Shown here: positions 1 to 18,177 of the stretch, in pieces
How positions within the stretch are numbered: the first letter of the stretch is position 1
Layout: each line of letters opens with the position of its first letter
Assembly: GCA_020696385.1 (NCBI GenBank)
Contig: JAEHCQ010000006.1
Coordinates: 32,001 to 96,000, forward strand
Source of the DNA: Methanobacteriota archaeon
GTDB taxonomy: Archaea; Thermoplasmatota; Thermoplasmata; SG8-5; JAGLSY01
Direction of reading: 5' to 3'
Length of the DNA: 64,000 nucleotides
Made by a program: the position numbers and the translations under genes
The notes under the pieces: model-generated
Database searches by the model: none
What the model saw: only the letters and a program-made list of their open reading frames with translations
Told to the model about the DNA's origin: nothing

Positions 1-276
1 TAAGCATCATTTAATGTGCATTGTTTATATTTTATTGCTGTATTTGTGTAATATAGTTTTATATTTATCTTCTTACATTATACATCTGTGGAAATAAGAT
101 GAAATACAATTTGGTAATGGCGCTGTTGATCCTTGGTATTATGTCAATCTGGCTATTTAGGTTGATTCCTGTTGTATACATGTTTATCAAATTAATGCGA
201 TTTGCCATGTTATCATTAGGTAATTGGTATAGGGGTGATCGAATCCAACAAATGGGAAGTCTGGCTCTTGTATGAT

Positions 277-1326
277 TTATTTTTTCATAGTGTCCAGTTC
301 TGCTATTTTCTCCTTCAGAACACCAAACGATACCTTTTTTCTATCAATAGAAACTGTCATGTTCTCTGATAAGTATATTTTCTTCATTACTCCGAAGCAC
401 TCGTCCTTGAATTTCGCATGCAGGATCTCCTCCCAGTTGAAGTGCTCCTCCACATTGGGGAAGACCCCGAAATACAATAGATTGTACTTGCCCACATGAC
501 CTCTGTAAGCGATCGGAACGCATGGGTCATCTCGAATATACTGGATGATCTGTTCCTTGCATTTGTCTATCCTGATGAAGCTCACAACAAATACATGGCC
601 TGGTGGTATGCAGAATTGAGGGAATCTGCAAACTGGCTGTGTGATCAGTCCGGCCTGTGTCAGGGCTTCTATTCTTTTCTCAATTGTCTTTCTGTGTGTG
701 TCCAGTTCCTTCGACAGTAGATGTTCATTGGTCTTGATGCCCTCTCCTGCCAGCAATTTTTTCAAGATATTGAATCCCAGTTCATTCAATTTGTAGCCAT
801 TGAGTATCAACTCGCCATCCTTATCGAACCTCTTATCCATGCATGCTATACTGGAATTTGGATCATATTTGAATAGGAGTTCATTATTGACAAAGACCAC
901 GTCAGCAGGGAATCGGTTCTCTAATGGGGGGAGCTTATCGTCCTCCACTATCTTCTCCTTCCAGTAGAAGTATGAGGACATGCTCTTGTGGAATTCGAAG
1001 AGCAGTGTGTTATAGCCATCATCCCATGATTTGAAGGAGGCGAATATTGTATCATCCTCGGCCAAGAACTTGTCGATCCTGGCTTGCCTTGGAAGATCAG
1101 CCCTTACAATGGAGAAAAGAGGTCGCTCCTTGAAAAGTCCAGTGAAGGGATAGTATGGGGCTGTCAATATTCCATTCTCGAAAAGTGCGGTCACCTGTGA
1201 CTTAATTGTATTTCTGTGGCGATCGAGGCTTTTGGCCAGAGCACTAACATTGATGCTCACTCCAACACCATCACATATTTTTTCGAGTATCGCGAGAGAA
1301 AGTTCGTCTTCTAGCATATCGGCCAT
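277..1326 (-). CDS. Transcriptional regulator with two tandem Lrp/AsnC-like HTH + effector modules (paralogue A)
   Basis: Two HTH-like segments (ALAKSLDRHRNTIKSQV; LLSKELDTHRKTIEKRIEAL), each followed by an AsnC/RAM-like beta-alpha region. Aligns end to end with 9599..10648. Divergent from hydrogenase operon 1. Confidence 0.7.
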   Translation of the reverse strand: MADMLEDELSLAILEKICDGVGVSINVSALAKSLDRHRNTIKSQVTALFENGILTAPYYPFTGLFKERPLFSIVRADLPRQARIDKFLAEDDTIFASFKSWDDGYNTLLFEFHKSMSSYFYWKEKIVEDDKLPPLENRFPADVVFVNNELLFKYDPNSSIACMDKRFDKDGELILNGYKLNELGFNILKKLLAGEGIKTNEHLLSKELDTHRKTIEKRIEALTQAGLITQPVCRFPQFCIPPGHVFVVSFIRIDKCKEQIIQYIRDDPCVPIAYRGHVGKYNLLYFGVFPNVEEHFNWEEILHAKFKDECFGVMKKIYLSENMTVSIDRKKVSFGVLKEKIAELDTMKK

Positions 1327-1544
1327 GCGATGTACAATATTTTATCATTATTAATATCTTTTGTATGGGCTAATATCAAATCTGCACTGCATACATGTAC
1401 AATTTTATATATCATTGTTACTATTGTTGGATGGTAAATATGGCAATAATGGCAAATTCAATATGTTGCCAGTAGCAATCTTAACAATCTTAATGTTATT
1501 TTTTATGAGGGGTGAATATATACTAATATTTCCTTCATGAATGT

Positions 1545-3326
1545 ATGACTATGGTAGTTTCAGATATAGAAAGTGTCAAAAATGCCCAAAGTATGTCTAA
1601 GTATAAGGTCGGTATTTTTGATTTTGCAAGCTGTGAAGGATGTGAACTGCAGATAGCCAATCTTGAGGAGGATATCCTCGAGCTTTTGGATACGGTGGAG
1701 GTAGTATCATTTCGTGAGGTCATGAAGGAGCATTCCGATGACTACGATATTGCTTTCATTGAGGGTTCGATAAACAGGCCAGTTGATGAGAAAAGGCTGA
1801 AGGAGATCCGGGCAAATGCCAAGATCCTCATCGCCCTTGGTGATTGTGCCACAACTGGTTGTGTTAATAAACTGAGGAACCAATGGCCAGATGCGGAAAA
1901 TCTCAAAGAGGTCTATGCGGATGCAGACATTGCGAATAATGAGTATTTCGATGTCTTCCCGACAAAGAAGCTCAATGAGGTCGTGGATGTTGATTTCTAT
2001 ATCCGTGGATGTCCAGTCAGGAAAGAACAGGTCCTGTACTACATAAGGCGTCTTACCACGATGGCTCCAAGGAAGAACCTGGATCTCCGATTCGGTGTCA
2101 CCGCCAGGGAGCTTGAATCAGATACAAGGTCCATCATCCAGTACGATCCTCAGAAGTGCATACTGTGCAGGCATTGCGATGTTGTTTGCAATGATATCCT
2201 GGACATACACGCTATTGGATTGACCAATAAGGGAAATGAGTCCATCATATCCACGCCTTTCAATAAGGGTCTGGATGATAACAAATGTATCTCATGCGGA
2301 CAGTGTTTGGTCAACTGCCCGGTTGGTGCATTCTCCGAGCATTCCGATGTGGAGAAGGCTATAGGATTGCTTGACGATCCAAACAATTTCGTTGTGTTCG
2401 TTATAGATCTAACAGCTGCTGCAACAGCCATGGAAGTCCTGCCAACAGACAGAGAGGACTTTGGCGAGGCTTTGGGAAGTCTCATAGCGTCATTGAAATC
2501 ACTGGGAGCTGACAGAGTTGTGGATTTCACACATTTCAATTATCTTTCACTGGCAGCACAGGGAACTTATGTTAGCGAGAATGACGACATGATTTTCACA
2601 TCATGGTGTCCAAGTGCCAATTCGTACATCCGAAAATTCCATCCTGAGTTCAAAAAGAATCTGCAGAAGGTGTCATCACCCGAGCAGATTATGTTGGATG
2701 TCCTGGGTGAGAGATATACAAAGGGAGAGAAGGATCTGAAGATAATCCTTCTGTCACCATGTATCGTCCACAAGGGTAATTCAAAGATCGATGCGGTCTT
2801 GACTGCCAGGGAACTTCCAAGACTTCTCAAGCAGAAGGGCGTGGACATTGACTTCTATGAGCCTTCGGAAGGTGTGTTCGATTGCGAACTTGGCTTGTCC
2901 AGTGTCTTTGTCAAGGGTGCCAGTAGCGACTATGCTTACTCATTGGCAATAATACAGACGGCTTACATGAGAAAGTTCAATAATCTCGATGCCCGGCTGG
3001 CTGTGACCACTCTTGAGGATTATGTTCATGAAATGGCCTTCGACAGTGAAGAAGGCTTCTTCAATGCTCTCATAATCGAGGATCTGGCGAAGGCGAGTAA
3101 GTATCTGACAAAGGACATTGCCAAGAGATACAATGTGGTGGAACTGTACCCATGTTTCCACGGTTGTCTAACAGGTGGCGGAACCGTACCAACTACTTCG
3201 ATAGATGTTATTGACCAGCGTAGGGACCATCTGAAGAATTTCAAGGGCGAGTCCAAGGGGCCTGTCTGGTTCTCAAAGCAGATAATAGAGGCTTATGACA
3301 AGCAGATAAAAGGAGGTGATGAGTAA
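1545..3326 (+). CDS. Chimeric hydrogenase subunit: group 3b [NiFe] small-subunit N-domain + 2x[4Fe-4S] + degenerate [FeFe] H-cluster domain
   Basis: DFASCEGC / GDC / GCP proximal-cluster motifs (C30, C33, C101, C156); CILCRHCDVVC and CISCGQCLVNCP ferredoxin motifs; H-domain L1/L2/L3-like FTSWCP, LSPCIVHK, ELYPCFHGCLTGGG. The true start may be ATG 1593 (MSKYKVG), which matches the start of the paralogue at 13590. Confidence 0.85.
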   Translation: MTMVVSDIESVKNAQSMSKYKVGIFDFASCEGCELQIANLEEDILELLDTVEVVSFREVMKEHSDDYDIAFIEGSINRPVDEKRLKEIRANAKILIALGDCATTGCVNKLRNQWPDAENLKEVYADADIANNEYFDVFPTKKLNEVVDVDFYIRGCPVRKEQVLYYIRRLTTMAPRKNLDLRFGVTARELESDTRSIIQYDPQKCILCRHCDVVCNDILDIHAIGLTNKGNESIISTPFNKGLDDNKCISCGQCLVNCPVGAFSEHSDVEKAIGLLDDPNNFVVFVIDLTAAATAMEVLPTDREDFGEALGSLIASLKSLGADRVVDFTHFNYLSLAAQGTYVSENDDMIFTSWCPSANSYIRKFHPEFKKNLQKVSSPEQIMLDVLGERYTKGEKDLKIILLSPCIVHKGNSKIDAVLTARELPRLLKQKGVDIDFYEPSEGVFDCELGLSSVFVKGASSDYAYSLAIIQTAYMRKFNNLDARLAVTTLEDYVHEMAFDSEEGFFNALIIEDLAKASKYLTKDIAKRYNVVELYPCFHGCLTGGGTVPTTSIDVIDQRRDHLKNFKGESKGPVWFSKQIIEAYDKQIKGGDE

Positions 3327-3805
3327 TGGAAGCTAAAGATAAATTCATTATAGATACTATACTACATACCTATTCAAATATAGATGACCCTCAACTTGTG
3401 ATATTGCAGAATATTCAGGAAATTCTCGGATATGTCGGAGAGGAATATCTCACATATGTTTCCGAGAACAGTGAATATTCACTTACCGAACTTTATGGTG
3501 TTGTATCCTTCTATCCTCAATTTAGATTTGACCCACCTGGAAAACACACCATCAAGGTCTGCAGTGGTACAGCATGCCATGTTAGAGGTGGCTCTGGCAT
3601 CGCACAGGAATTGGAAGATATTCTGGAGATCAAACCTGGCGGAACCACAAAAGATGGATTGTTCTCACTAGAGTCCGTCAGATGTCTGGGATGCTGTGGT
3701 CTTTCACCTGTCATCATGATCGATGAAGAGACATATGGCCGTGTGAAGAAAGGTGGCCTTCAAAAGATACTTGAATCTTACAAAACCGAGGAGGTTGCTG
3801 AATGA
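3326..3805 (+). CDS. hydC: HydC/NuoE-like [2Fe-2S] subunit
   Basis: GVVSFYPQF, VCSGTACHVRG and VRCLGCCGLSPV thioredoxin-like [2Fe-2S] motifs; start overlaps the upstream stop (TAATG); RBS GGAGGTGA. Confidence 0.9.
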   Translation: MEAKDKFIIDTILHTYSNIDDPQLVILQNIQEILGYVGEEYLTYVSENSEYSLTELYGVVSFYPQFRFDPPGKHTIKVCSGTACHVRGGSGIAQELEDILEIKPGGTTKDGLFSLESVRCLGCCGLSPVIMIDEETYGRVKKGGLQKILESYKTEEVAE

Positions 3806-3861
3806 GAGAGCATAGCGATTTCATTCTGGAGCCCGTAACGCAGAGGAGGGGTCTACAATGA
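3802..3861 (+). CDS. Intercistronic mini-ORF 1 (MREHSDFILEPVTQRRGLQ, 19 aa)
   Basis: ATGA overlap with the hydC stop and with the hydB start; GGAGGT at 3790-3795; homologous to the mini-ORFs at 7010 and 7748. Confidence 0.5.
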   Translation: MREHSDFILEPVTQRRGLQ

Positions 3862-6800
3862 AAATAAGCAAGATCGTCCACCTTAGGGACATGGCCCAGA
3901 GGGGTAAGGAATCCATGGATAATGGAACACCCCAGGTGATATTTGGATTGGCCACCTGTGGAATAGCAGCTGGCGGAATGCCGCTCAAGGAATATGCAGA
4001 GCTGTATCTGGATGAGAACGATGTTCATGCGGACATCGTTTCCGTGGGTTGCATCGGTATGTGCCATGCGGAACCATTGGTCGATATCAAATTACCCGGA
4101 AAGCCACGTGTTACCTATTCGGACATGGACATTGAAAAGCTGAAGAAGATACTGGATGAGCACCTTGTTGGGGAGGAGCCCGTCAAGGACCTTGCAATGT
4201 GCCAGCTTACAGATGAGATATCCGAGTGCGAGCATGGTGTCATTGCCGAGACCGATATCTATGATGGCATTCCAAGATATCAGGATCTACCTTTCTTTGC
4301 CAAGCAGATAAGGGTGGCCTTGAGGAACTGTGGAATTGTGGTTCCTGAGGATATCGAGGAATACATCGCCAGGGGCGGCTACCGAGCTGCTTACAGATCA
4401 CTGTTCGAACTAACGCCAGAGGAAATAATTGGCGAGGTCAAGACATCTGGAATACGCGGAAGAGGTGGAGCTGGTTTCCCAACTGGTTTGAAATGGGAGT
4501 TCTGTCACAAAGCACCAGGTGACGTGAAATACGTTATCTGTAATGCAGATGAAGGAGATCCAGGAGCTTACATGGATCGTGCAGTTTTAGAAGGTGATCC
4601 GCACAGTGTTATCGAAGGTATGATAATCGGTGGATACGCAATGGGAGCCTCGGATGGTTATATCTACATCCGTGCTGAATACCCGCTGGCCATCGAGAAA
4701 CTGAAGAAAGCTATTGCTTCTGCAGAAGAACATGGCATACTTGGTGACCGTGTCTTTGGAATGGATTACAGCTTCAGGATACACATTCGTGAGGGAGCTG
4801 GTGTTTTCGTTTGTGGTGAAGAAACTGCGCTCATAAACTCCATCGAAGGTAAGAGAGGCGAACCGAGGCCAAGACCGCCATTCCCGGCTGTCAGCGGTCT
4901 TTGGGGCAAACCTACAAATATCAACAATGTCGAGACCTGGGCCAATATCGCCATGATACTTCAGAAGGGCGGAAAATGGTTCTCCACCATGGGAACAGAG
5001 AAGAGCACTGGGACTAAAGTATTCTCTTTGGTAGGGAAAGTGAACCGCGCAGGTCTTATTGAAGTTCCAATGGGAATTCCGATGAAGGACATCATCTATG
5101 AGATCGGCGGCGGTATCATGGACGGCCGCAAGTTCAAGGCCGTTCAGACAGGCGGCCCCTCTGGTGGTTGTATTCCGGAGGAACATCTGGATATTCCCGT
5201 GGATTATGATAATCTGAAAACACTGGGTTCCATTGTTGGATCTGGTGGAATGGTGGTTCTCGATGAGGACACCTGCATGGTGGATGTTGCAAGATACTTC
5301 CTCACTTTCACAGCCGAGGAATCATGTGGGAAATGTACTCCATGCAGGATCGGAACAAGAAGATTGCTGGAGATACTTGAGAAGATATGTCACGGAGAAG
5401 GTGTGATGGAGGATCTCGAGGTACTTACGAGCCTTTCCGAGCAAGTGAGTGCAAGTGCGCTCTGTGCCCTTGGAGGAACAGCACCCAATCCGATCATCAC
5501 CACCATGAAGTACTTCATGAACGAGTATGTGGATCACATTGAGAACAAAATATGTGATGCATCTGTTTGCGCAGCCATGTTCAAGTCGCCATGTCAGAAC
5601 ACATGCCCGGCAGGAACCAATGTGCCTGGTTACATCCAGCTGATAACAGAAGGCAGGTATGCAGAAGCATATGATGTCAACAGGGAGGCAAACCCCTTCC
5701 CATCCATTTGTGGAAGGGTCTGTGAGCATCCTTGTGAAGGTAGATGCCAGCGTGCGCAATTGGACGAACCAATCGCCATTCGTGAGCTCAAGAGATATGC
5801 TTCTGATGAGGCATTCAAGGCAGGCGTTGGAAAAATATCCACACTTGATGATGTGGATAAGACCATCGCCATTGTGGGTGGAGGACCATCCGGTCTTTCA
5901 GCAGCCTATTTCCTGAGAAGGATGGGGTACAAGCCAACTATCTATGAAGCCGAAGAGAAGATGGGTGGCTGGGTACGATACGGAATTCCAAAGTACAGAC
6001 TGCCACATGAGATAATCGACAAGGAGATCCAGGATATCATCGATCTGGGTGTTGTGGCCAAGACAAATACCAGTGTGGGCAAGGACGTGACAATGGAAAC
6101 ACTGCTCAATGATAATGATGCGGTATACCTGGCCATCGGAGCCCAGAAGGACACGAAACTGGGACTGGAAGGTGAAGATCTTCCAGGCGTGCTTCCAGGA
6201 CTTCAGCTGCTCAAGGAAATGAACAGCGGCAAGTCTGTAGATCTGGGTCAGAGCATTCTCGTGATAGGTGGAGGAAATGTGGCTATCGATGTCGCAAGGA
6301 CCGCTGTCAGGATGGGAACCAAGGTCACCATATGCTACAGACGAGAAGAGGATGACATGCCAGCTTACGATGAGGAGATCGAACACTGCAGAGAGGAAGG
6401 CGTGGAATATCACTTCCTGGTCGCACCCGAGAAGCTCATTGTGGAAGGCGGAAAGGTCGTTGGAGCAGTCTTCAGAAAGAATGTCATGGGCGACTTCACC
6501 AAGTGGGGCCGCAGATCACCTGTCGCTACCGATGAGACTGTCGAGATAAGGGCTGACCGTGTGGTCAATGCCATTGGACAACAATTGGATACTGACTTTG
6601 CTGGTGGAATGAATATCGTGGGTGATTCAAGGTGGATACCCGTAGAAGGAACAGGAAGCTCAGCTTGGTTCCCGAAGATATTCGCTGGTGGAGACGCAGT
6701 AACTGGACCTGCAAGTGTGATAGATGTGGTGGCTGATGGTAAGAGAGCGGCCAAGAACATTGATCTGTTCTTGGGTGGCAATGACCGACTGGCCGAGTTG

Positions 6801-7013
6801 GAAAAGATGAACAATACCAACTATTCCAATGTCGAGCCAGACAATGCCGAGCCAATGCAGAGACAGGGCGTTAAGGAACTCAATGCTGATGATAGGACAT
6901 GCGGCTTCGAGGAAGTTGTCATGTGTATGGATTCAGAATGTGCAAAGAAAGAGGCATCCAGGTGTTTGAGGTGTGATCTCAGTGCGGACACAGATGGAGG
7001 TGATGTTGAATGA
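3858..7013 (+). CDS. hydB: HydB/NuoF-like FMN/NADH subunit fused to a GltD/NfnB-like FAD/NADPH module
   Basis: N-terminal thioredoxin-like [2Fe-2S] (TCGIAAG, GCIGMC); GRGGAGFPTG, NADEGDPGAYMDR, CGEETAL, SCGKCTPCR; then PCQNTCPAG, CGRVCEHPCE, GGGPSGLSAA, GGGNVAIDVAR, CYRR, FAGGD, EASRCLRCD. Confidence 0.9.
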   Translation: MKISKIVHLRDMAQRGKESMDNGTPQVIFGLATCGIAAGGMPLKEYAELYLDENDVHADIVSVGCIGMCHAEPLVDIKLPGKPRVTYSDMDIEKLKKILDEHLVGEEPVKDLAMCQLTDEISECEHGVIAETDIYDGIPRYQDLPFFAKQIRVALRNCGIVVPEDIEEYIARGGYRAAYRSLFELTPEEIIGEVKTSGIRGRGGAGFPTGLKWEFCHKAPGDVKYVICNADEGDPGAYMDRAVLEGDPHSVIEGMIIGGYAMGASDGYIYIRAEYPLAIEKLKKAIASAEEHGILGDRVFGMDYSFRIHIREGAGVFVCGEETALINSIEGKRGEPRPRPPFPAVSGLWGKPTNINNVETWANIAMILQKGGKWFSTMGTEKSTGTKVFSLVGKVNRAGLIEVPMGIPMKDIIYEIGGGIMDGRKFKAVQTGGPSGGCIPEEHLDIPVDYDNLKTLGSIVGSGGMVVLDEDTCMVDVARYFLTFTAEESCGKCTPCRIGTRRLLEILEKICHGEGVMEDLEVLTSLSEQVSASALCALGGTAPNPIITTMKYFMNEYVDHIENKICDASVCAAMFKSPCQNTCPAGTNVPGYIQLITEGRYAEAYDVNREANPFPSICGRVCEHPCEGRCQRAQLDEPIAIRELKRYASDEAFKAGVGKISTLDDVDKTIAIVGGGPSGLSAAYFLRRMGYKPTIYEAEEKMGGWVRYGIPKYRLPHEIIDKEIQDIIDLGVVAKTNTSVGKDVTMETLLNDNDAVYLAIGAQKDTKLGLEGEDLPGVLPGLQLLKEMNSGKSVDLGQSILVIGGGNVAIDVARTAVRMGTKVTICYRREEDDMPAYDEEIEHCREEGVEYHFLVAPEKLIVEGGKVVGAVFRKNVMGDFTKWGRRSPVATDETVEIRADRVVNAIGQQLDTDFAGGMNIVGDSRWIPVEGTGSSAWFPKIFAGGDAVTGPASVIDVVADGKRAAKNIDLFLGGNDRLAELEKMNNTNYSNVEPDNAEPMQRQGVKELNADDRTCGFEEVVMCMDSECAKKEASRCLRCDLSADTDGGDVE

Positions 7014-7066
7014 GCGACTATAAGGAGCACATTCAAAAGCCCGTAATGATAATGGAGGGATTCTGA
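7010..7066 (+). CDS. Intercistronic mini-ORF 2 (MSDYKEHIQKPVMIMEGF, 18 aa)
   Basis: ATGA overlap with the hydB stop; perfect GGAGGTGA at 6996-7003; its stop abuts the next ATG (TGA-ATG). Confidence 0.5.
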   Translation: MSDYKEHIQKPVMIMEGF

Positions 7067-7747
7067 ATGGCAACGACTTCATTCAAAATAAACATAGTGA
7101 TTGATGGAAAGGACTATGCTGGAGAGCCGAACCAGACAGTACTGGATGTAGCAAGGGCGAACTCGGTTGATATACCAACCCTTTGCTTCAATCCACTGTT
7201 CCCCGACCACAGGATCGGGTCTTGCAGACTGTGTCTGGTCGAGGTGAAAGCAGGGGGCAGACCCGGTCTGCAACCAAGTTGTACGATGCCAGTTTCTTCT
7301 GGATTATCTGTATCCACTATCAGCGATGCGGTGTATCAGGCAAGGAGGACTGTTGTAGAACTTCTGCTATCCGAGCATGTTCAGAAATGTCGCGATTGTC
7401 CAGTCAGTGGCGAGTGTAACTTTGCCAAGCTGTGCAGGGATTATGATATTAATGGAGTACCCGTATGTGCCGAATGCCCGAATCAGGGAGAAGGCTGTCT
7501 TTTGACAAGAGGAGAGCTTTGCCTGGGACCATTGACATATGCCAACTGTAATGCTTTCTGCACCCGAAAAGGGTACAGGTGCGAGGGTTGTCATTCGATA
7601 ATGGCCAATGAGGATATTCTCAGGTTCGGATTGAAGGCATACAAGGATGCTGGCTTCACAAAAGAAGAGATACTTGTAGCGGCCAAGGTCTTCTCCTATG
7701 ATTCGATGGAGATGCTTGAGCGTGTGATGACCGAGGAGGGGTTTTGA
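7067..7747 (+). CDS. Chimeric Fe-S subunit: HydA/NuoG N-terminal [2Fe-2S] + His(Cys)3 domain fused to the C-terminal 8-Cys domain of a group 3b [NiFe] small subunit
   Basis: IPTLC..GSCRLC..PSC and EHVQKCRDCPVSGEC, then Cx2Cx6Cx7Cx8Cx3Cx6Cx2C with spacing identical to the C-terminus of the small subunit at 13590..14366. Confidence 0.85.
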   Translation: MATTSFKINIVIDGKDYAGEPNQTVLDVARANSVDIPTLCFNPLFPDHRIGSCRLCLVEVKAGGRPGLQPSCTMPVSSGLSVSTISDAVYQARRTVVELLLSEHVQKCRDCPVSGECNFAKLCRDYDINGVPVCAECPNQGEGCLLTRGELCLGPLTYANCNAFCTRKGYRCEGCHSIMANEDILRFGLKAYKDAGFTKEEILVAAKVFSYDSMEMLERVMTEEGF

Positions 7748-7804
7748 ATGCGAGAACAAAGTGATTGTATTCAAGAACCCGGAATGCCAAAGGAGGGATT
7801 CTAA
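7748..7804 (+). CDS. Intercistronic mini-ORF 3 (MREQSDCIQEPGMPKEGF, 18 aa)
   Basis: ATG immediately follows the upstream TGA; GGAGG at 7735-7739; its stop lies 1 nt before the large-subunit ATG (7806). Confidence 0.5.
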   Translation: MREQSDCIQEPGMPKEGF

Positions 7805-7805
7805 G

Positions 7806-9131
7806 ATGAGTGAAATAAACATTAATGTAGAGCATTTGACAAGAGTAGAAGGACATGGAAACATCGTCCTGAATGCGAAAGATGGTACCATTGAGAAGAT
7901 ACAGTGGCAGGTCTCAGAGGCCCCACGTCTCTTCGAGTCCTTCGTCAGAGGCAAGCCATACAATCAGTTGGCTCCAATAACATCCAGGATATGTGGTATC
8001 TGTTCAATAGGCCACACACTGGCCTCATTGAAAGCTACTGAGGCCGCTATGGATATTGAAATATCCGAGCAGAGTCAGAAACTGAGACGATTGGCTATCC
8101 ATGCCGAGAATCTTCAGAGCCACATACTCCATGTAGGATACCTTGTAGCTCCTGATCTTTTTGGTGTTGGGAGCGTGGTGCCACTCGTTGGTTCAAACCC
8201 CAACGAGGTATTGGCTATCGTCAAGCTCCACAGACAGGCTAACTTGATGTCCGATCTGATATGCGGCAGGACGACACATCCTACAAATCTGGTGCCAGGC
8301 GGTATCTACAAAACACCATCTCCATATGCGCTGAAGGATATCAAACAGAACCTGCTGGATATGGTTCCAACAGGCAATGCGGTCGGCGAGGTCATACTTG
8401 CCAATGCAGGAGCCCTTCCGGATTTCAAGAGAGATACGGAATACATCGCTCTTGTTACGGATGATGAATATGCCCTGTATGATGGAATGGTTGGGTCAAC
8501 CGATGAGGAGCCACAGCACGTGGATGCTTACAAGACCATTGTGAATGAGTTCGTGGTCCCATATTCCACAGCCAAGTTTACCAAGAATAAACGCGACTCA
8601 TACATGGTCGGAGCATTGGCCAGGTTCAACCTGAATGCCGACAAGCTCAGTCCTATGGCCAAAGAATGGGCCAGCAAGTTCGGTCTAAAACCAGTTAATC
8701 CAAATCCCTTCATGAACAATGTGGCGCAATTCGTTGAATTCGTTCACTCCATCGAGGATTCCGTCAGGATAATCGACGAGCTATTGGACGGCGGATTGAA
8801 GCAGGAGCCAACACCAAAGGTCACGCCAAAGGCAGGACGTGGTGTAGGTGCTGTGGAAGTTCCAAGAGGTCTTCTCTTCCATGAATATGAGTATGATGAC
8901 AAGGGAAACTGTGTAAAGGCGAACTGTGTGATACCGACCAATATGAACCACAACAATATCAACCAGGATTTCGCGGCTATAGCTCCAACACTCCTTGATC
9001 TACCAGAGAAACAGATCGAGCTGACATTGGAGATGCTTGTCAGAGCGTATGATCCGTGCATAAGCTGTTCCACCCACTATCTGAATGTCGAGTGGGCCAA
9101 TGGCTCTGGGACAAAAACGGGGGGGAACTAA
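7806..9131 (+). CDS. hyhL: [NiFe]-hydrogenase large subunit, group 3b-like (copy 1)
   Basis: TRVEGHG, L1 SRICGICS, EVPRG, L2 YDPCISCSTH plus a 17-aa cleavable C-terminal extension. Start set at ATG 7806 (MSEININVEH) by the RBS and by the paralogue. Confidence 0.95.
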   Translation: MSEININVEHLTRVEGHGNIVLNAKDGTIEKIQWQVSEAPRLFESFVRGKPYNQLAPITSRICGICSIGHTLASLKATEAAMDIEISEQSQKLRRLAIHAENLQSHILHVGYLVAPDLFGVGSVVPLVGSNPNEVLAIVKLHRQANLMSDLICGRTTHPTNLVPGGIYKTPSPYALKDIKQNLLDMVPTGNAVGEVILANAGALPDFKRDTEYIALVTDDEYALYDGMVGSTDEEPQHVDAYKTIVNEFVVPYSTAKFTKNKRDSYMVGALARFNLNADKLSPMAKEWASKFGLKPVNPNPFMNNVAQFVEFVHSIEDSVRIIDELLDGGLKQEPTPKVTPKAGRGVGAVEVPRGLLFHEYEYDDKGNCVKANCVIPTNMNHNNINQDFAAIAPTLLDLPEKQIELTLEMLVRAYDPCISCSTHYLNVEWANGSGTKTGGN

Positions 9132-9553
9132 TGGAAAGTGTATCACAGAATTCGTATGAAGCAAATGATATCCTTGACCTCATCCAGGCCTGTGGAACAG
9201 GAACTGGCATGGAGCAACAAGGTGCGCGCAATTCTCTTGAAAGGGTAGGAGGATCTGCTGTTGGTCCACTGTCAGAGGCACTATTGCATGACACGAATGC
9301 AATAGTGAGATACAGGTCTGCCGAGGCCCTTGGTCATATTGGGGACCCCTGTGCTATAGAACCATTGATAAAAGCTCTGGGGGATGATGATTCATCGGTC
9401 CAGTGGAGGTCCATCGAGGCATTGATAGATATCGGTGAGCCAGCAATGGAAATGATCGCTTCGAAAGTAAATGGCAGGAATATCAGTAAGGATCTGCGAT
9501 GTAACCTGCGCTATGCTTTGATGGAGATCCTGGAAAATCGAGGTAAGCAATAA
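9131..9553 (+). CDS. HEAT-repeat (PBS-lyase-like) protein
   Basis: VRYRSAEALGHIGDPCAIEPLIKALGDDDSSVQWRSIEALIDIG repeats; ATG 9131 overlaps the large-subunit stop (TAATG). Confidence 0.8.
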   Translation: MESVSQNSYEANDILDLIQACGTGTGMEQQGARNSLERVGGSAVGPLSEALLHDTNAIVRYRSAEALGHIGDPCAIEPLIKALGDDDSSVQWRSIEALIDIGEPAMEMIASKVNGRNISKDLRCNLRYALMEILENRGKQ

Positions 9554-9598
9554 AGGAAGACCAAGCGTAAATAGAATAATGGTCGGATGAGTAATACT

Positions 9599-10648
9599 TC
9601 ACTCATCCGATCTCTTTTCATTTTTTCTCTTCAAGTTCTTTATGATGCCGTGTGATATCTTCTGCTGATCGATATGCGTGGCCATTCTGGGTGAGAGGTA
9701 TATCTTCTTCATGGCTCCTATGCATTCCTTGAACCTGTGATCGTACTTGTCCTCCCAATCAAAATGATCCTCCACACTGGGGAACACACCAAAGAGAAGG
9801 AAATTATATCTGCCGATGCCAGCTTCCCACGCCATCGGTATATGATCATCATTCTCTATTGCCTTTAGTATCTTTGATTTGGTCCTCTTGACCTCCATCA
9901 GGTAATAGACAAGTATCTGGTCTGGGGGTACGAAGAAATTTGGAAATCTGCATACGGGATCCGAGATTATGCCCGCCTCTTTCAATGATCTGAGGCGTCT
10001 TTCGATGGTCTTTCTGTGGACATCCAGCTTCTGTGCCAGCATGTTCTCATTGGTTCTTATCCCATCTCCCTGTACCAGCATTTTGAGTATATTGAAGCAT
10101 AGATTGTTGATATTGTATCCATTGAGGCTTAGCTTGCCAGTCCCCTTGAACTTTTTCTCCATTATGAATATTGGAGAGTAAGGTTTGTTCTTTATGATGT
10201 CCTTATTGCTGAACACCAGGACATGAGCTGAATTCCTCCTGTCTCTCTGCGGGATCTTATTGGTATTGACTATCTCTTTTTTCCACTGGCCATAGGAGTG
10301 TATGTCCTTGTGGAATTCGATCAATAATGTATTGTATTCCTCGTCCCTAACATGGAAGGCTGCGAAGATGTGCTCATCGCTCTTGAACCAGTTCTCGGTA
10401 TCATCATTTCTCGGAAGCTCAGCTCTTGCGATCGCGAGCATCGGGTATTCATCATACAGCCAGCTAAATGGATACACTGGCTTATTGATAATTTCATGGC
10501 TGAATAATGCATTTATCTGGGACTTGATAGTGTTCCGATGTCTATCAAGGGTCTTTGCAAGGTGGCTTATGTTCACTTCCACTCCTTCACCGGTGCAAAT
10601 ACTCTCCAGAATTTTCAGATTCAATTCATCTTCTAGCAGTTCTGTCAT
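9599..10648 (-). CDS. Transcriptional regulator with two tandem Lrp/AsnC-like modules (paralogue B)
   Basis: HLAKTLDRHRNTIKSQI and MLAQKLDVHRKTIERRL HTH segments; homologous to 277..1326; GGTGA RBS before ATG 10648; divergent from operon 2. Confidence 0.7.
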   Translation of the reverse strand: MTELLEDELNLKILESICTGEGVEVNISHLAKTLDRHRNTIKSQINALFSHEIINKPVYPFSWLYDEYPMLAIARAELPRNDDTENWFKSDEHIFAAFHVRDEEYNTLLIEFHKDIHSYGQWKKEIVNTNKIPQRDRRNSAHVLVFSNKDIIKNKPYSPIFIMEKKFKGTGKLSLNGYNINNLCFNILKMLVQGDGIRTNENMLAQKLDVHRKTIERRLRSLKEAGIISDPVCRFPNFFVPPDQILVYYLMEVKRTKSKILKAIENDDHIPMAWEAGIGRYNFLLFGVFPSVEDHFDWEDKYDHRFKECIGAMKKIYLSPRMATHIDQQKISHGIIKNLKRKNEKRSDE

Positions 10649-10855
10649 TATCACCTGGATAAACTGTCAATATAAATACATTTTCAATGATATAATGCTA
10701 TAATTTATTATTTGAGGTGTGAAAATATATACATAATACGCGCGCCCTCATCTAGGTGATATTTTGTATGTTATAGCACTAATTATCATTAATAGTATCA
10801 TTTACGACACTTTATTTCATTTATGTTATCATAATTTATTAATACATATCTGGTG

Positions 10856-10869
10856 TTATCAATTGATAA
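10856..10869. promoter_or_regulatory. Perfect 14-bp palindrome TTATCAATTGATAA, candidate operator
   Basis: Palindrome about 57 nt upstream of the KaiC-like gene, in the divergent promoter region. The AT-rich context weakens its significance. Confidence 0.3.
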
Positions 10870-10925
10870 TGACTGGTTAGTTCAAAGTTTTAAGACAGAA
10901 AACCAGGAAATATGGAGTAGATAAA

Positions 10926-11657
10926 ATGGAAAAGACCTATAAATTAAACATTAATGGTTTGGATGATAAAATGGATGGAGGCATTCCTGAAAAACACATA
11001 ATTCTTCTGGCAGGAACACCTGGAACCATGAAGTCCACATTAGCCTACCGTACTTTGATGGCCAATGCACAGGACGGTGAGACCAAGGCTCTATATCTAA
11101 CACTGGAGCAGGATCGGGACAATTTCATGTACCACCTGACCAAGCTGGGTATGGGCGATAATGTGGAGGGAAGACTGAATCTCTATGACCTCACCACGAC
11201 AAGAGAGCAGTGGTTGAAGCTGAGTCAGGACTCGGGGATCCATCCAGAGGACCCGACTGGCAAAGTGAACATGGAGACCTTCAAGAGGCAATTGGAAACA
11301 TTGAAGAATGCTCTGGGTTTTAATCTGTTGGTCATTGATTCTCTACCTGTGGTCGAGATGATGTTCAAAATGGATGATCCGAGGGATGAGTTGTTCCACT
11401 TTTTCAAATGGCTGAAGAAGCTGGGTGTAACAACATTCTTGATAACCGAGATGAGCCAGGATTCTCCAAAATTCAGCAAGCATGATATCGATTTCCTTGC
11501 TGATGGTATAATCAAATTATCAATGGAACAGATAAATCCTACCAAGAGCCAGAGACAGATCCAGATAATCAAGATGAGAGGTGTGAATCACACCACAGAT
11601 CCATTTGAGCTTCGCTACACGCCAGATGGGTTCGAAGCACTAAAAGTCATTAATTGA
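10926..11657 (+). CDS. KaiC/RAD55-like single-domain ATPase
   Basis: Walker A GTPGTMKST, LYLTLEQ, Walker B LLVIDS, FLADGII, RQIQIIKMRG. Confidence 0.85.
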   Translation: MEKTYKLNINGLDDKMDGGIPEKHIILLAGTPGTMKSTLAYRTLMANAQDGETKALYLTLEQDRDNFMYHLTKLGMGDNVEGRLNLYDLTTTREQWLKLSQDSGIHPEDPTGKVNMETFKRQLETLKNALGFNLLVIDSLPVVEMMFKMDDPRDELFHFFKWLKKLGVTTFLITEMSQDSPKFSKHDIDFLADGIIKLSMEQINPTKSQRQIQIIKMRGVNHTTDPFELRYTPDGFEALKVIN

Positions 11658-11676
11658 TAGAAACGGAGGAATAAGA

Positions 11677-13593
11677 ATGAAAATAATATCAAAACAAGAT
11701 TTCGATGCCTTTATAAATGCCCTGATCCAGGATGAATCTTTGGATGTTGAGGGTGTGAAAGCCAAAGGAGATAAGTTCGTATTTGGACCGTTAGATACAG
11801 CAACAGAGCTGCGCCTGGACTATGATGTGACCATACTTCCACCCAAGAAGTATTTCCTTCCTCAGTACGAGACCATGATGCATTTCGATATATCAACTGG
11901 GAAGGCCACGGCTCCAGCAATGGACACGAAGAAGGTCATTGTGGGAGTTCATCCATATGACCTGATAGCGATCCAGCAGATGGACAAATACTTCTTTGAC
12001 ACCAATGTTGATGACATATATCTGCAGAAGAGGAAGAACTCTCTTCTGATAGGTGTAATGCCCGCGAAGGCCTCTGAGAAGGCCTTCTATGGGGATCTGA
12101 TGAAAAATGCAGGTACTCCAGAATTGCACTTCGATCTGATGGTGACTGACCTGGGTGTGCTATATGCTGTCCTTCCAGGAACTCCGGAAGGGGCACAGCT
12201 CCTTTCGAGAGCGACATCCCGGGATGCACAGCCCCAGGAGATAGAGGCTGCCAAGAACAAGCGGCAGGAAGCGATAGACAGGGCAACAAGAGGTTTGAAG
12301 GTTGGTCCTAAGGCATGGCATTCTCTTCTATCGAACAACTACATGAGCTCAATATGGAAGGAGATGGCAGATCAGTGTCTGGCATGCGGTTCCTGTACTC
12401 TCGTTTGTCCAACATGTTTCTGCTATGATGTCAATGACGAGGTCGGATTGGACCTCAATACCGGTGTCAGGACCAGAACCTGGGATGGCTGTCTTCTTAG
12501 AGACTTCACAAAGGTCGCACCTGGCGAGATATTCAGGGAGGATATCGTCGAGAGATATCGCCACAGGATAAACAGGAAGGGCAAGTACCTCCCCGAATCA
12601 ATGGGCTTCGTTGCCTGTGTGGGATGTGGGAGATGCTCAAGCCAGTGTGTTCCTGATATTGCTGATCCGGTCAATTTGATCAATAAATTGGCTGAGGCAA
12701 CTATGGACACGATACCCGACACGAATATGGGCCATGTGCCAGAGAAATCTGACCTTGGAATAATTGCCAGTGATTCATTGTACATACCAAGGACCGCGAC
12801 CATAAGACGGATGATGAAACTCACCAAGACAGAGACTTTCTTCGAGATCGGTCTAGATGATGGCCAGCCTCTTGGACATGTGCCTGGTCAGTTTGTCGAG
12901 GTATCCATATACGGTGTGGGTGAAGCACCAATTTCAGTATCTTCTCCTCCCGGAGGGAACACATTCCAATTGATAGTAAGGAATGTGGGGGATCTGACCA
13001 ATAAGCTCCATTCATTGAGCGAAGGAGACAAGATTGGGATCAGAGGTCCATTCGGTACTGGCTTTGACACGGAAGGTATGAGGGGAAAGAACATTTTGTT
13101 CATTGGTGGTGGATTGGGCATAGTTCCAATGCGCTCCCTTATCAAGTATGTGCTGAACAACCGTGCAGACTATGGCAAGGTCATGATCCTCTATGGTTGC
13201 AAGGATCCCAGTGAGCTTCTCTTCAAGGATGAGATATCTCAATGGGAGAATACACCTGGCGTCGAAATGCATAGGACAGTGGATACCTGTGCAGAGGGCG
13301 AAAATTGGGATGGGCAGGTAGGTGTCATAACCACCATCATGCCTATGGTGACCTTCGACCCATTGAATACCATCGCTGTGGTAGTTGGACCACCGATCAT
13401 GTACAGGTTCGTGAACCGCGATCTGCTTAACATGGGTATGCCTGAGGAGAATATCATTGTCTCTCTGGAAAGGCGTATGAAATGCGGCGTGGGCAAGTGC
13501 GGTCACTGCCAGATAAATGGAATATATGTCTGTAAAGAGGGGCCTGTATTCAATTATAAAGACATTAAAGATGAACCGGAGGCGTTTTCATGA
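11677..13593 (+). CDS. Fused sulfhydrogenase beta (AsrA-like 2x[4Fe-4S]) and gamma (FAD/NAD(P), [2Fe-2S]) subunits
   Basis: CLACGSCTLVCPTCFC, RTWDGC, CVGCGRCSSQC; then PGQFV, GEAPIS, RGPFG, GGGLGIVP, VGPPIM, ERRMKCGVGKCGHC, CKEGPVF. Confidence 0.9.
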   Translation: MKIISKQDFDAFINALIQDESLDVEGVKAKGDKFVFGPLDTATELRLDYDVTILPPKKYFLPQYETMMHFDISTGKATAPAMDTKKVIVGVHPYDLIAIQQMDKYFFDTNVDDIYLQKRKNSLLIGVMPAKASEKAFYGDLMKNAGTPELHFDLMVTDLGVLYAVLPGTPEGAQLLSRATSRDAQPQEIEAAKNKRQEAIDRATRGLKVGPKAWHSLLSNNYMSSIWKEMADQCLACGSCTLVCPTCFCYDVNDEVGLDLNTGVRTRTWDGCLLRDFTKVAPGEIFREDIVERYRHRINRKGKYLPESMGFVACVGCGRCSSQCVPDIADPVNLINKLAEATMDTIPDTNMGHVPEKSDLGIIASDSLYIPRTATIRRMMKLTKTETFFEIGLDDGQPLGHVPGQFVEVSIYGVGEAPISVSSPPGGNTFQLIVRNVGDLTNKLHSLSEGDKIGIRGPFGTGFDTEGMRGKNILFIGGGLGIVPMRSLIKYVLNNRADYGKVMILYGCKDPSELLFKDEISQWENTPGVEMHRTVDTCAEGENWDGQVGVITTIMPMVTFDPLNTIAVVVGPPIMYRFVNRDLLNMGMPEENIIVSLERRMKCGVGKCGHCQINGIYVCKEGPVFNYKDIKDEPEAFS

Positions 13594-14366
13594 AACCAAA
13601 AGTAGCATTCTTTGACTTTGCCAGTTGTGAGGGGTGTCAGCTTCAGGTCGTGAACCTGGAGGAGGCTATCCTTGACGTATTGGCATTGGTGGACATAGTG
13701 TCCTTCAGAGAGGCCATGAAGGAACACTCGGACGATTATGATATAGCCATAATCGAGGGTTCCATCGCAAGGCCAATTGACATAGATCGAATAAAGAAGA
13801 TACGCGAGCAGGCCAGCATACTCATAACCATCGGAGCATGCGCTCACCTTGGCGGTGTGCAGAGGCTGGGTAATCAGTGGGATGCCGAGGCAAATAAGGT
13901 CGAGGTCTATGAGAGACACCCAGGCTCGGAGATAACCAAGGGTGATTCCAACCCATATTTCGCACAGATAAAGCACAGAGCGGTGAGCGAGATAGTGAAG
14001 GTGGACGCTGCCATACCCGGCTGCCCCATTGACTCCAATGAATTTGGCAAGGTCTTGGTCGCACTTCTGACTGGCAAAAAACTACCCATACCAGACTACC
14101 CGGTATGTGTGGAGTGCAAGAAGAACGAGAATATCTGTGTATTCGAAACAGGCGGATTCTGCATGGGTCCAGTCGCTCGGGCTGGATGCGGTGCGCCCTG
14201 CCCAACACATGGTGGCGAATGCGAGGCATGTAGGGGATATGTGGATCATCCGCATACTCAGGCGCATGGTGAGGTCCTGAAGAAATACGGACTCAGTCCG
14301 GATGATATCATGACCAAGAGGACCATGTACAATTATCGCGACTTCGAAGATAAAGGAGGTGACTAG
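13590..14366 (+). CDS. hyhS: [NiFe]-hydrogenase small (delta) subunit, group 3b
   Basis: DFASCEGC, GACA, PGCP and a C-terminal 8-Cys domain (VCVEC...CMGPVARAGCGAPCP...CEACRG); ATGA overlap with the upstream gene. Confidence 0.93.
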   Translation: MKPKVAFFDFASCEGCQLQVVNLEEAILDVLALVDIVSFREAMKEHSDDYDIAIIEGSIARPIDIDRIKKIREQASILITIGACAHLGGVQRLGNQWDAEANKVEVYERHPGSEITKGDSNPYFAQIKHRAVSEIVKVDAAIPGCPIDSNEFGKVLVALLTGKKLPIPDYPVCVECKKNENICVFETGGFCMGPVARAGCGAPCPTHGGECEACRGYVDHPHTQAHGEVLKKYGLSPDDIMTKRTMYNYRDFEDKGGD

Positions 14367-14367
14367 A

Positions 14368-15666
14368 ATGGGTGAGATAAACATCAATGTAGAGCACTTG
14401 ACAAGAGTTGAAGGCCATGGGAATATAGTATTGAACGCAAAAGATGGAACCGTTGAGTTCGTCCAGTGGCAAGTATCCGAGGCTCCAAGATTCTTCGAAT
14501 CATTTGTCCGAGGAAGACCGTACAATGAACTGAGCCACATCACCTCAAGGATATGCGGTATATGCTCGATAGGACACAGCCTGGCCTCGTTGAAAGCGAC
14601 CGAGGCCGCAATGGGCATCCAGATAACTGAGCAGACTCAGATATTGAGAAGACTAGCCATCCATGCAGAGAACTTGCAGAGCCATGTGCTCCATGTAGGT
14701 TACCTGGTCGCGCCCGATCTTCTGGGAGCACCAAGTGTCGTACCTCTGGCAAGCAGTCATACCGATGCGGTCCTGAAAATTGTCGGGCTACACAGATTGG
14801 CAAATGAATTCTCCAATCTGGTCTGTGGAAGGACAGTACACCCTGTAAGCCTCATAGTTGGTGGTTTCAGCCACATACCCTCAGAAAAGCAATTGAAGGA
14901 AATTCGCCAGAAATGGGTGGATGCGATACCAGATGTGGTCGCGGTCGCTGAGATCGTTCTATCACTGGCTCACAAACTTCCGAACTTCACAAGGGAGACG
15001 GAATTCATCGCGCTTACGGCTGACGATGAATACGCGATCTATGATGGCGACATCGGTTCGACCGATGGCGGACGTTGGCCAGTTGCAGAATACTTGGACA
15101 TAACCAATGAGTTCGTTGTGCCGCATTCGACTGCAAAGTACACCAAGCACAAGAGGGAATCGTACATGGTGGGCGCACTTGCCAGGTTCAATTTGAACTA
15201 TGACAAGATGGGGCCACTGGCAAAGGAATGGGCTGGCAAGTTCGGACTTCAGCCAGTCAACCACAATCCTTTCATGAACAATGTCGCTCAGCTTGTAGAG
15301 ATCGTCCACAGTATCGAGGATACACTGGCTCAGATCGACAAGCTACTGGAAATGGGTGTCAATGTCAATGAGAGGCCCAAGTACGAAGTGAAGGCTGGCC
15401 GAGGTGTCGGAGCTGTTGATGTACCACGTGGAATTCTTTTCCACGACTACACATACGATGACAAGGGCGTATGTGTAAAGGCAAACTGCATAATCCCGAC
15501 CAACCAGAACCACAATAATATAAACTTGGACTTCCAGGCAATAGCCCCAACATTACTGAACCTCCCGGAAAAGGAGATCGAGCTGACATTGGAGATGCTC
15601 GTCAGAGCGTATGATCCATGCATAAGCTGTTCGACCCATTATCTGGACGTGCAGTGGAAGAGATAG
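14368..15666 (+). CDS. hyhL: [NiFe]-hydrogenase large (alpha) subunit, group 3b (copy 2)
   Basis: SRICGICS and YDPCISCSTH plus an 8-aa extension; RBS GGAGGTGA at 14355-14362 supports ATG 14368. Confidence 0.95.
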   Translation: MGEININVEHLTRVEGHGNIVLNAKDGTVEFVQWQVSEAPRFFESFVRGRPYNELSHITSRICGICSIGHSLASLKATEAAMGIQITEQTQILRRLAIHAENLQSHVLHVGYLVAPDLLGAPSVVPLASSHTDAVLKIVGLHRLANEFSNLVCGRTVHPVSLIVGGFSHIPSEKQLKEIRQKWVDAIPDVVAVAEIVLSLAHKLPNFTRETEFIALTADDEYAIYDGDIGSTDGGRWPVAEYLDITNEFVVPHSTAKYTKHKRESYMVGALARFNLNYDKMGPLAKEWAGKFGLQPVNHNPFMNNVAQLVEIVHSIEDTLAQIDKLLEMGVNVNERPKYEVKAGRGVGAVDVPRGILFHDYTYDDKGVCVKANCIIPTNQNHNNINLDFQAIAPTLLNLPEKEIELTLEMLVRAYDPCISCSTHYLDVQWKR

Positions 15667-15700
15667 ATCCCCCAAAAATAAAAGGGATGGAAATAACAAT

Positions 15701-15728
15701 GGAAGAGGCAGTTTAATATGCCTCTTCC
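15701..15728 (+). terminator. 10-bp stem-loop after the hydrogenase 2 structural genes (terminator, attenuator or stabiliser)
   Basis: GGAAGAGGCA-8 nt-TGCCTCTTCC followed by a pyrimidine-rich tract. Confidence 0.45.
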
Positions 15729-15744
15729 CCCTTTCATATTTTAC

Positions 15745-17834: not shown

Positions 17835-17958
17835 TTTATTTCCTCTTTATAATATAATCATTTTTATAATTCTAATATGTATATATGTGGCCAGTTCATT
17901 CATTATTTAATCTCTCAATTCTTTCGAGCTTTTGAATGTTCGAATACGATTCGCACAT

Positions 17959-18177
17959 TCAAGTCTTCTCCATCAATTCCTCAAAGAGCTTCAGGGTCTC
18001 TTTTGCCTCTTTCTCATCCACCTTCTGGATGGCGAAGCCTGCGTGAACTATTACATAATCACCGATCTCGATTTCCAACATCGACATGTTCACTTCTCTG
18101 ATCACGCCAGAGCCGAAATCAACCTTGCTGATAGCTCCATCTAAAGCTATCACCTTTCCTGGTACTGCCAAGCACAT
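17959..18177 (-). CDS. hypC: Hydrogenase assembly chaperone HypC
   Basis: MCLAVPGKV ... GDYVIVHAGFAI. Confidence 0.97.
   Translation of the reverse strand: MCLAVPGKVIALDGAISKVDFGSGVIREVNMSMLEIEIGDYVIVHAGFAIQKVDEKEAKETLKLFEELMEKT

Follow-up and report, generated by a model that had tools for sequence, protein, structure and literature searches.

The closest described counterparts of the element reported here are MIRUs (mycobacterial interspersed repetitive units), which are short, dispersed and apparently mobile repeats that lie in gene orientation at start codons or in intercistronic spacers and that insert at start codons together with a coupled open reading frame (ORF), according to the review PMC12548453. 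The present subject is a repeat detected in a 64,000-nucleotide (nt) stretch of DNA, hereafter the window, from a Methanobacteriota archaeon (GTDB Thermoplasmatota, SG8-5; contig JAEHCQ010000006.1, positions 32,001 to 96,000), in which three gene junctions of a hydrogenase operon are each filled exactly by one ORF of 18–19 codons (mini-ORF). At a probability of roughly 0.6, these mini-ORFs are the built-in frames of a MIRU-like start-codon repeat; the ORF would relay ribosomes to the next gene, and the peptides would be by-products. The review cites Supply et al. (1997) for start-codon insertion of MIRUs together with their coupled ORF.

The number of tandem copies is variable in MIRUs, and so it is in the repeat studied here. 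As in MIRUs, there are many copies per genome, which lie co-oriented at gene starts, and a small ORF is coupled to the flanking genes, as seen in all three window copies and in 20/24 deduplicated junction copies. By analogy, the repeat appears to be an archaeal, structured counterpart of the MIRU-type start-codon repeats; the comparison concerns the functional kind, and homology is not claimed. MIRUs are actinobacterial whereas this repeat is archaeal, and the two are likened by function with no expectation of a sequence relation. The repeat also has two covarying helices, one burying the start codon of the mini-ORF (AUG1) and the other pairing with the next Shine-Dalgarno sequence; to our knowledge, no such two-helix structure has been described for MIRUs. 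Furthermore, approximately 60% of its copies (45/71) are located in 5′ leaders, where the ORF is decayed, and its coupling distances are −4, 0, +1 and +2 rather than −4 alone. Full-text literature searches, judged from titles and the openings of abstracts, returned no archaeal element of this kind.

Other repeat families resemble the element in part. REP/BIME, ERIC and Correia-type repeats and miniature inverted-repeat transposable elements (MITEs) are likewise short, hairpin-forming and multi-copy, are co-transcribed with genes, form mosaic arrays and differ in presence or absence among relatives. They lie mostly 3′ of genes or anywhere in spacers, in both orientations, and have terminal inverted repeats or a partner transposase, whereas the present repeat is always in the sense orientation, ends in a Shine-Dalgarno sequence and a start codon, and has no link to a transposase. 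Rickettsia palindromic elements (RPEs) are short palindromic repeats readable as protein, and a 16-codon in-frame N-terminal insert in gcvPB gives one copy of our repeat the same property. RPEs insert inside coding regions as a rule, whereas such a fusion is the exception here, found in one copy only. Finally, the termination–reinitiation coupling described for genes that overlap (Huber et al. 2019 and 2023, cited in PMC12548453) and engineered bicistronic designs share with our junctions the −4/−1 nt overlaps or very short gaps and a short upstream ORF that delivers the ribosome and unfolds the next start site. The difference is that the short ORF is supplied here by a repeated structured insert, linking two pre-existing genes in two steps.

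Anatomy, structure and distribution of the repeat

An earlier note on this DNA had described three spacer-filling mini-ORFs, each with its own ribosome-binding site, with that of the next gene inside it, and with start and stop codons adjacent to the flanking genes; this description was confirmed from the sequence (Table 1). A GGAGG motif lies 6–8 nt 5′ of each mini-ORF ATG, and the GGAGG of the next gene is contained within each mini-ORF. Pfam agrees with the gene names given in the earlier note: the flanking genes encode a NuoE/HydC-like 2Fe-2S protein, a NuoF-like and GltD-like fusion, a NuoG-N-terminal-like Fe-S protein and a NiFe large subunit. Alignment of the spacers gave 73% mean column identity, and a 29-nt degenerate motif derived from them gave 3 matches in the window, compared with 0.00 expected (100 shuffles). 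With a looser motif, a fourth copy was found on another contig, followed by further copies in the genome; this motif matched in all 4 same-family genomes and in 0/36 of the others sampled.

A covariance model (R1) was built from 20 copies. In this genome it gave 61 matches at E <= 0.1, of which the 52 best were taken, and 43 non-redundant copies were left after removal of the opposite-strand echoes of the palindromic hairpin. A genome-wide search with a nucleotide profile, as proposed in the earlier note, does recover the motif, and the motif is not restricted to hydrogenase genes; the suggestion of a repeated RNA element was likewise right and understated, as each spacer is one copy of a structured repeat that occurs throughout the genome, rather than a feature of the hydrogenase operon. 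Four relatives of the family gave 53, 39, 28 and 29 R1 matches (E <= 1e-6; echoes unfiltered). In a second family of the order, 2–4 matches per genome were detected in 4/5 genomes of two genera by a scan of the order, and an R1 scan of the class matched 0/118 genomes sampled outside the family. An Rfam 15 scan of window positions 1–17000 (E <= 5) yielded five chance-level matches and no family at its gathering score, the lone match over the repeat copies being a long non-coding RNA at 23 bits against a cut-off of 80. In two fragmented relatives (G001 and G003), many contigs start or end in or near a repeat copy (G003:C183:22-121, G001:C452:11-108, G001:C59:1-58, G003:C127:1). The repeat may break these assemblies, and the copy numbers of both relatives are probably underestimates.

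From 5′ to 3′, the repeat consists of a first Shine-Dalgarno sequence (SD1), a spacer of 5–7 nt, a hairpin (P1), a C-rich stretch, a conserved loop, a second Shine-Dalgarno sequence (SD2), 3–6 nt and the gene's start codon. SD1 is often GGAGGUGAU, matching the 16S 3′ end that was found. P1 is a hairpin of 10 base pairs or more with the outer stem UUGAAUG/CAUUCAA, and its 5′ strand (consensus UUGAAUG) carries both the stop codon that ends the upstream gene and AUG1. The C-rich stretch, AAGCCC or AAUUCC, pairs with the 3′ half of SD2, GGAGG(G/A)AUU, to form the second helix (P2), which encloses the conserved loop G-N-AAUG-(N)-AAUGGA. Two types of P1 hairpin were observed, one with an inner tandem G.A/A.G and a 2-base-pair tip, found in all three window copies, and the other near-perfect. 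A kink-turn of the L7Ae-binding kind was considered for the former and rejected, the tandem G.A/A.G being symmetric by eye, paired on both sides and without a 3-nt bulge. Composite and tandem arrays carry up to three hairpins before one tail and include a second hairpin kind (AACUUCGAA..UUCGAAGUU) that lies outside the R1 model; the number of array modules differs between the two species compared, with differences of 87–161 nt.

Both helices covary. RNAalifold applied to a MAFFT alignment of the 20 copies recovered P1 and P2, with 6/15 pairs compensated. Among 46 distinct copies, 97.1% of pair cells were standard and 13/15 pairs showed changes on both sides; this larger alignment was fitted to R1, which favours the structure, and the independent MAFFT result agrees with it. 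The observed pairing and covariation were reached in 0/500 shuffles, and sliding the partner by 1–3 columns left 17–48% of cells paired (maximum 47.8%). At P2 pair 58-84, 22 copies have CG, 22 have UA and 1 is unpaired, and P2 covaries with the Shine-Dalgarno sequence itself (CCC/GGG, UCC/GGA and CUC/GAG); in the second family, CAC was read by eye opposite GUG. Because G-U cells outnumber non-standard cells by 37 to 20 in the 46 copies, the structure is assigned to the sense strand. Taken at the level of sequence, this pattern argues that the P1/P2 structure is under selection.

Of the synonymous differences between copies 1 and 3 (R2, E3, S5 and E10), previously taken as a hint of peptide-level selection, all four are real, and three sit in base-paired columns, indicating base-pair covariation instead. 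The changes at E3 (GAG/GAA) and S5 (AGC/AGT) form opposite sides of a single compensatory P1 pair, G-C versus A-U, read by eye outside the 15 scored pairs, and a non-synonymous change, F7/C7, compensates that at R2 (AGA/CGA; A-U versus C-G, scored pair 31-47).

The placement of the repeat is equally regular. In this genome, 37/43 copies end in a GGAGG-like SD2 and the beginning of an ORF that spans 60 amino acids or more, in the sense orientation, and the other 6 are upstream array modules, the gcvPB fusion and one orphan. Wherever a gene start is adjacent, in this genome or in the congener, the copy lies in the sense orientation (71/71). Based on comparison of filled and empty sites, the repeat appears to have been inserted in sense into the window between the Shine-Dalgarno sequence and the start codon of approximately 40 genes, in this genome and in close relatives, adding about 50–67 nt per site. 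NCBIfam named 21/25 of the downstream proteins tested in this genome, with scores that reached the curated cut-off or with clear family membership. Among these are chaperones and nascent-chain factors (DnaK, thermosome and NAC), components of the ribosome and of RNA processing (L3, L16, L31e and RNase P component 1), redox and hydrogenase-related proteins (HypE, desulfoferrodoxin and sulfhydrogenase-like subunits) and enzymes of central metabolism (3-hydroxybutyryl-CoA dehydrogenase (Hbd), crotonase, a PorB/VorB-like subunit, the C-terminal half of transketolase, and GcvPB). Since the downstream genes are so varied, the element is no hydrogenase device, which also tells against the micro-subunits, assembly peptides and hydrogenase-specific stoichiometry that had been offered as its purpose. 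The junction between the two transketolase genes (N- and C-terminal halves) holds a copy both in this genome (L037) and in two genomes of the second family (L068 and L069); this copy may be old and retained, or the site may have been hit repeatedly.

Table 1. Positions of the mini-ORFs, repeat copies and other features. Positions without a prefix refer to the window.
Feature	Position	Strand	Details
Mini-ORF, copy 1	3802-3861	+	Peptide MREHSDFILEPVTQRRGLQ; ATG overlaps upstream TGA (ATGA); own TGA overlaps next ATG (ATGA)
Copy 1, full element	3775..3874	+	hydC-like/hydB-like junction; R1 match 75.4 bits, E 2.5e-22
Copy 1, parts	SD1 3790-3794; AUG1 3802-3804; upstream stop TGA 3803-3805; SD2 GGAGG 3845-3849; gene ATG 3858	+	
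Copy 1, helices	P1 3798-3807 with 3819-3828; P2 3829-3834 with 3848-3853	+	
Mini-ORF, copy 2	7010-7066	+	Peptide MSDYKEHIQKPVMIMEGF; ATGA overlap upstream; own TGA directly 5′ of ATG at 7067
Copy 2, full element	6983..7083	+	hydB-like/Fe-S protein gene junction; R1 match 75.4 bits
Copy 2, parts	SD1 6996-7000; AUG1 7010-7012; upstream stop 7011-7013; SD2 7054-7058; gene ATG 7067	+	
Copy 2, helices	P1 7006-7015 with 7027-7036; P2 7037-7042 with 7057-7062	+	
Mini-ORF, copy 3	7748-7804	+	Peptide MREQSDCIQEPGMPKEGF; ATG directly 3′ of upstream TGA; own TAA 1 nt before ATG 7806
Copy 3, full element	7721..7822	+	Fe-S protein/NiFe large subunit gene junction; R1 match 81.3 bits
Copy 3, parts	SD1 7735-7739; upstream stop 7745-7747; AUG1 7748-7750; SD2 7792-7796; gene ATG 7806	+	
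Copy 3, helices	P1 7744-7753 with 7765-7774; P2 7775-7780 with 7795-7800	+	P1 with inner tandem G.A/A.G and 2-base-pair tip
Copy 4, orphan or decayed	17887..17985	-	3′ end of minus-strand gene; R1 match 44.5 bits, E 3e-12
Composite or tandem arrays, this genome	C11:43999-44155; C11:37989-38140; C22:250659-250812; C44:208766-208956; C33:212300-212454		
gcvPB element insert	L059:1528-1620 (C33 of this genome)		16-residue N-terminal insert
First gene of the hydrogenase operon	1545-3326	+	
Helix-turn-helix protein genes	277-1326; 9599-10654	-	349 and 351 amino acids
HEAT-repeat ORF	9056-9553	+	

Mini-ORF retention and turnover between relatives

To compare the mini-ORF between contexts, a copy was assigned to a junction when an open frame of 80 codons or more, lying upstream, ended in the 5′ strand of P1, and to a leader otherwise; the ORF was scored as retained when AUG1 was present and the mini-ORF stop was no more than 10 nt from the gene start. 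Of the 81 copies, ten that lack a neighbouring ORF start were excluded (5 upstream array modules, the gcvPB fusion, the orphan and 3 congener copies, namely 2 single ones and 1 cut by the edge of its locus). Among all remaining copies, the ORF was retained in 22/26 at junctions and 5/45 in leaders (Fisher p 6e-10). The contrast was also observed after shared sites were dropped (20/24 versus 4/36; p 1.8e-8), among G.A-type hairpins only (12/14 versus 0/11; p 2e-5), in this genome only (11/13 versus 4/24; p 9e-5) and in the congener only (11/13 versus 1/21; p 3e-6). Several ORF-less leader copies are absent from the orthologous site in this genome, and because of these empty sites age alone fails to explain the contrast. 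In the deduplicated junction copies with AUG1, the spacing from the upstream stop to AUG1 is mostly −4 or 0, and that from the mini-ORF stop to the gene start is −4 (7 copies), 0 (2), +1 (4) or +2 (4); judged from sequence, these spacings appear to be those of termination–reinitiation. The proposal of a ribosome relay made in the earlier note thereby gains comparative support from the placement of starts and stops, the relay itself being what we infer. The peptide is not conserved across all copies, and the C-terminal half is read in any of the three frames after 1–2 nt indels past P1.

The gcvPA/gcvPB junction bears on the use of AUG1. In the congener this junction reads ...CAATGAGATACAGG..., with ATG AGA TAC and the peptide MRYRQARHDEPLI. 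In this genome, 48 nt of the element, comprising P1 and most of the tail, lie in frame directly past that gcvPB ATG, and a second start is absent. The GcvPB profile aligns from position 9 with the extension, compared with position 35 without it. As no second start is left, GcvPB must start at AUG1 in P1, directly past the gcvPA stop, if the gene works; on that condition, AUG1 must serve as a start codon in at least one copy. A mutated second start was considered and rejected, as alignment with the congener shows that the letters concerned are the gene's own codons 2–3, with the insert right past the ATG.

Presence and absence of the repeat were then compared with the congener, whose locus L025 is 97% identical in the Fe-S protein to the window operon. 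The junction between the first gene and hydC is empty in this genome and filled in the congener, those of copies 1 and 2 are filled here and empty in L025, and that of copy 3 is filled in both (L025 6655-6754). The first junction of operon 2 is empty here and filled in the congener, so that the two hydrogenase operons differ in state at 4/5 junctions; the statement that operon 2 has no such spacers is true of this genome, whereas in the congener this junction is occupied by a copy. A third species of the genus likewise carries a copy there; a fourth species and the sister genus lack one. In six orthologous operons belonging to other genera or families, the junctions are tight (GGAGG-N-ATGA) and R1 gives no match, and for this reason empty is taken as the ancestral state. 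The same result bears on the alignment of orthologous operons that had been proposed as a check on the peptides, since the spacers are absent from the orthologous operons of other genera. An excision footprint (ATGAG..ATG) at some empty sites was considered and rejected: at the first junction, the letters are the upstream gene's own last codons, as judged from outgroup junctions.

A total of 38 congener copies (35 outside L025 and three from it) were compared, of which 37 have both flanks on one contig of this genome. The same site is filled here for 12/37 of them, and 22 congener sites are at least 40 nt shorter in this genome. In 20 filled/empty pairs, the differences corresponding to apparent single units were 46–67 nt. 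The breakpoints are not sharp, the left one falling between SD1 and just past AUG1 and the right one at or just past the gene ATG, at times with an extra AGT codon.

Proposed ribosome relay and alternative explanations

The preferred reading, in which the mini-ORFs relay ribosomes, would proceed as follows. A ribosome ending the upstream gene would halt in or beside P1 and restart at AUG1, at a distance of 0 to a few nt and served by a strong SD1 of its own. Reading of the 17–19 codon frame through P1 and P2 would melt P2 off and open SD2, and termination on or beside the downstream ATG would allow restart at the downstream gene. One long gap would thus be replaced by two short gaps that the mini-ORF spans, a logic that PMC12548453 also ascribes to mycobacterial MIRUs. 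The same review reports that coupling in Haloferax volcanii weakens with increasing gap length and is almost lost above 30 nt. On that basis, a 56-nt insert in a −4 junction would be expected to uncouple the two genes, and we propose that an insert of approximately 56 nt keeps translational coupling because the mini-ORF relays ribosomes.

If this reading is true, the clade offers dozens of natural experiments on archaeal translational coupling, with a cassette of approximately 56 nt present or absent at orthologous junctions of close relatives. The repeat would be to archaea what MIRUs are to mycobacteria, with the addition of a defined covarying structure, and would show how a genome whose genes overlap tightly tolerates insertions within the 15 nt where a gene is most sensitive. 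The cassette is a candidate for bicistronic expression design in archaea, and annotation of the mini-ORFs as hydrogenase subunits should be avoided.

Several points weigh against the relay or limit its reach. That the mini-ORFs are translated is something we infer from sequence; a query for public sequencing runs matching window positions 1400–9600 returned none, and no RNA holder either. Initiation at AUG1, buried in the stable P1 stem, should be hindered unless an arriving ribosome melts the stem. P1 and P2 are kept equally well in leader copies that lack AUG1 or stop early, which suggests a structural role beyond the relay; this retention, the conservation of the P2 loop and the spread of copies are left unaccounted for by the relay model. 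The single-sequence fold z of the three window copies is −4.4 (copy 3), −1.7 and −0.9, significant for one only. A relay-competent ORF is missing in 4/24 junction copies, and the Fisher p-values are optimistic, as the copies are paralogous, fall into subfamilies and overstate independence; in addition, the junction class was set by open frames rather than by annotated genes. As to the spread of the element, the breakpoints are fuzzy around a net size of 46–67 nt, no mobilising enzyme was found for the repeat, and the term mobile rests on presence/absence patterns, some of which could reflect deletions.

The rival that survives best is a purely RNA-level leader element, such as one that stabilises mRNA, marks a processing site, binds a protein or gates the Shine-Dalgarno sequence; the mini-ORF would then be an accident of conserved nucleotides, with an AUG in the stem and a stop-rich spacer ahead of the start. 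Strong covariation in both helices agrees with this explanation, as do the replacement of AUG1 in 7/46 distinct copies (by AAG, AAA, AUA or UUA) with both sides changing and pairing kept, the shifts of frame by 1–2 nt indels, the stubs of 3–13 codons in several copies, many of them in leaders, the position of the repeat before ribosomal protein and chaperone genes, and the conservation, read by eye, of the tandem G.A/A.G of P1 with covarying flanks. However, the explanation leaves the contrast between junction and leader copies unexplained, including that within a single hairpin type, and it does not account for the observation that, whichever of the three frames is used, the ORF ends no more than a few nt from the gene start; the gcvPB fusion, moreover, needs AUG1 as a start. 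On balance, we consider it rather unlikely.

A second alternative, doubtful and more speculative, is that a transposase-free mobile element homes to translation starts. Its core carries a segment, of consensus CAUUCAAAAUCCC, that is antisense to the Shine-Dalgarno–spacer–AUG sequence and would pick the target, through pairing or short-homology recombination at GGAGG...ATG, and later form P1 and P2. Such an element would have been co-opted as a relay at junctions and, before ribosomal protein and chaperone genes, as a leader hairpin with a presented Shine-Dalgarno sequence.

We find it improbable that the repeat is simply a selfish non-autonomous transposon of the MITE, REP or PATE type, with single-stranded DNA hairpins seen by a transposase and incidental effects on RNA and translation. 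Congeners do differ in presence or absence at 25/37 sites, tandem and composite arrays occur, many contigs of relatives end in or near a copy, the imperfect hairpin is strand-specific, and the genome has one Y1 (IS200/IS605-type) transposase gene. Against this, no terminal inverted repeats and no clean or fixed-length target duplication were seen in the 20 filled/empty pairs, the P1 hairpin is internal and the breakpoints vary within the window from the Shine-Dalgarno sequence to the start codon. The invariant sense orientation at gene starts also speaks against a selfish transposon, and the covariation of P2 with the Shine-Dalgarno sequence is meaningful only in RNA. The lone Y1 gene was examined as a possible mobiliser of the REP/RAYT or IS200/IS605 kind and rejected: its flanks contain no P1-like hairpin, its contig has no R1 match, and its distribution does not track with the element across 22 genomes of the order, 16 of which carry the gene, among them genera without the element, whereas it was not found in two element-bearing genomes, both incomplete.

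We give hardly any credence to functional micro-proteins, whether hydrogenase micro-subunits, assembly peptides or amino-acid-sensing attenuator leaders: the N-terminal pattern M-x-E-x-x-[DSE]-x-I is common to the three copies and many others, but the paired stem imposes it, residues 2 and 7 covarying as base pairs, the C-terminal halves vary with the frame (MKWR.., MIMEGF and MINGG..) through 1–2 nt indels, the same element precedes unrelated genes, orthologous hydrogenase operons are without it, and the 97%-identical congener lacks two of the three copies. Peptide-level selection was rejected on the same grounds. No regulatory codon runs were seen in the peptides, and no T-run follows P1/P2 in the three copies, a reading made without applying a terminator program.

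Neighbouring features of the window

The fourth copy in the window, on the minus strand, contains a 20-codon frame (MCESYSNIQKLERIERLNNE). Beyond it lies an AT-rich, promoter-like stretch, followed by a gene starting MHEFAVVES, read by eye as hypA. The first gene of the hydrogenase operon encodes, based on Pfam, a NiFe small-subunit-like domain (Oxidored_q6) and 4Fe-4S domains fused to the C-terminal domain of an Fe-only hydrogenase large subunit, an unusual hydrogenase hybrid. Two genes for helix-turn-helix proteins flank this operon on the opposite strand and may encode regulators of the two operons that are paralogous to each other. If its first GTG is used, a HEAT-repeat ORF shares 76 nt with the end of the NiFe large subunit gene, as is also the case in the congener; the true start is probably later than this GTG.

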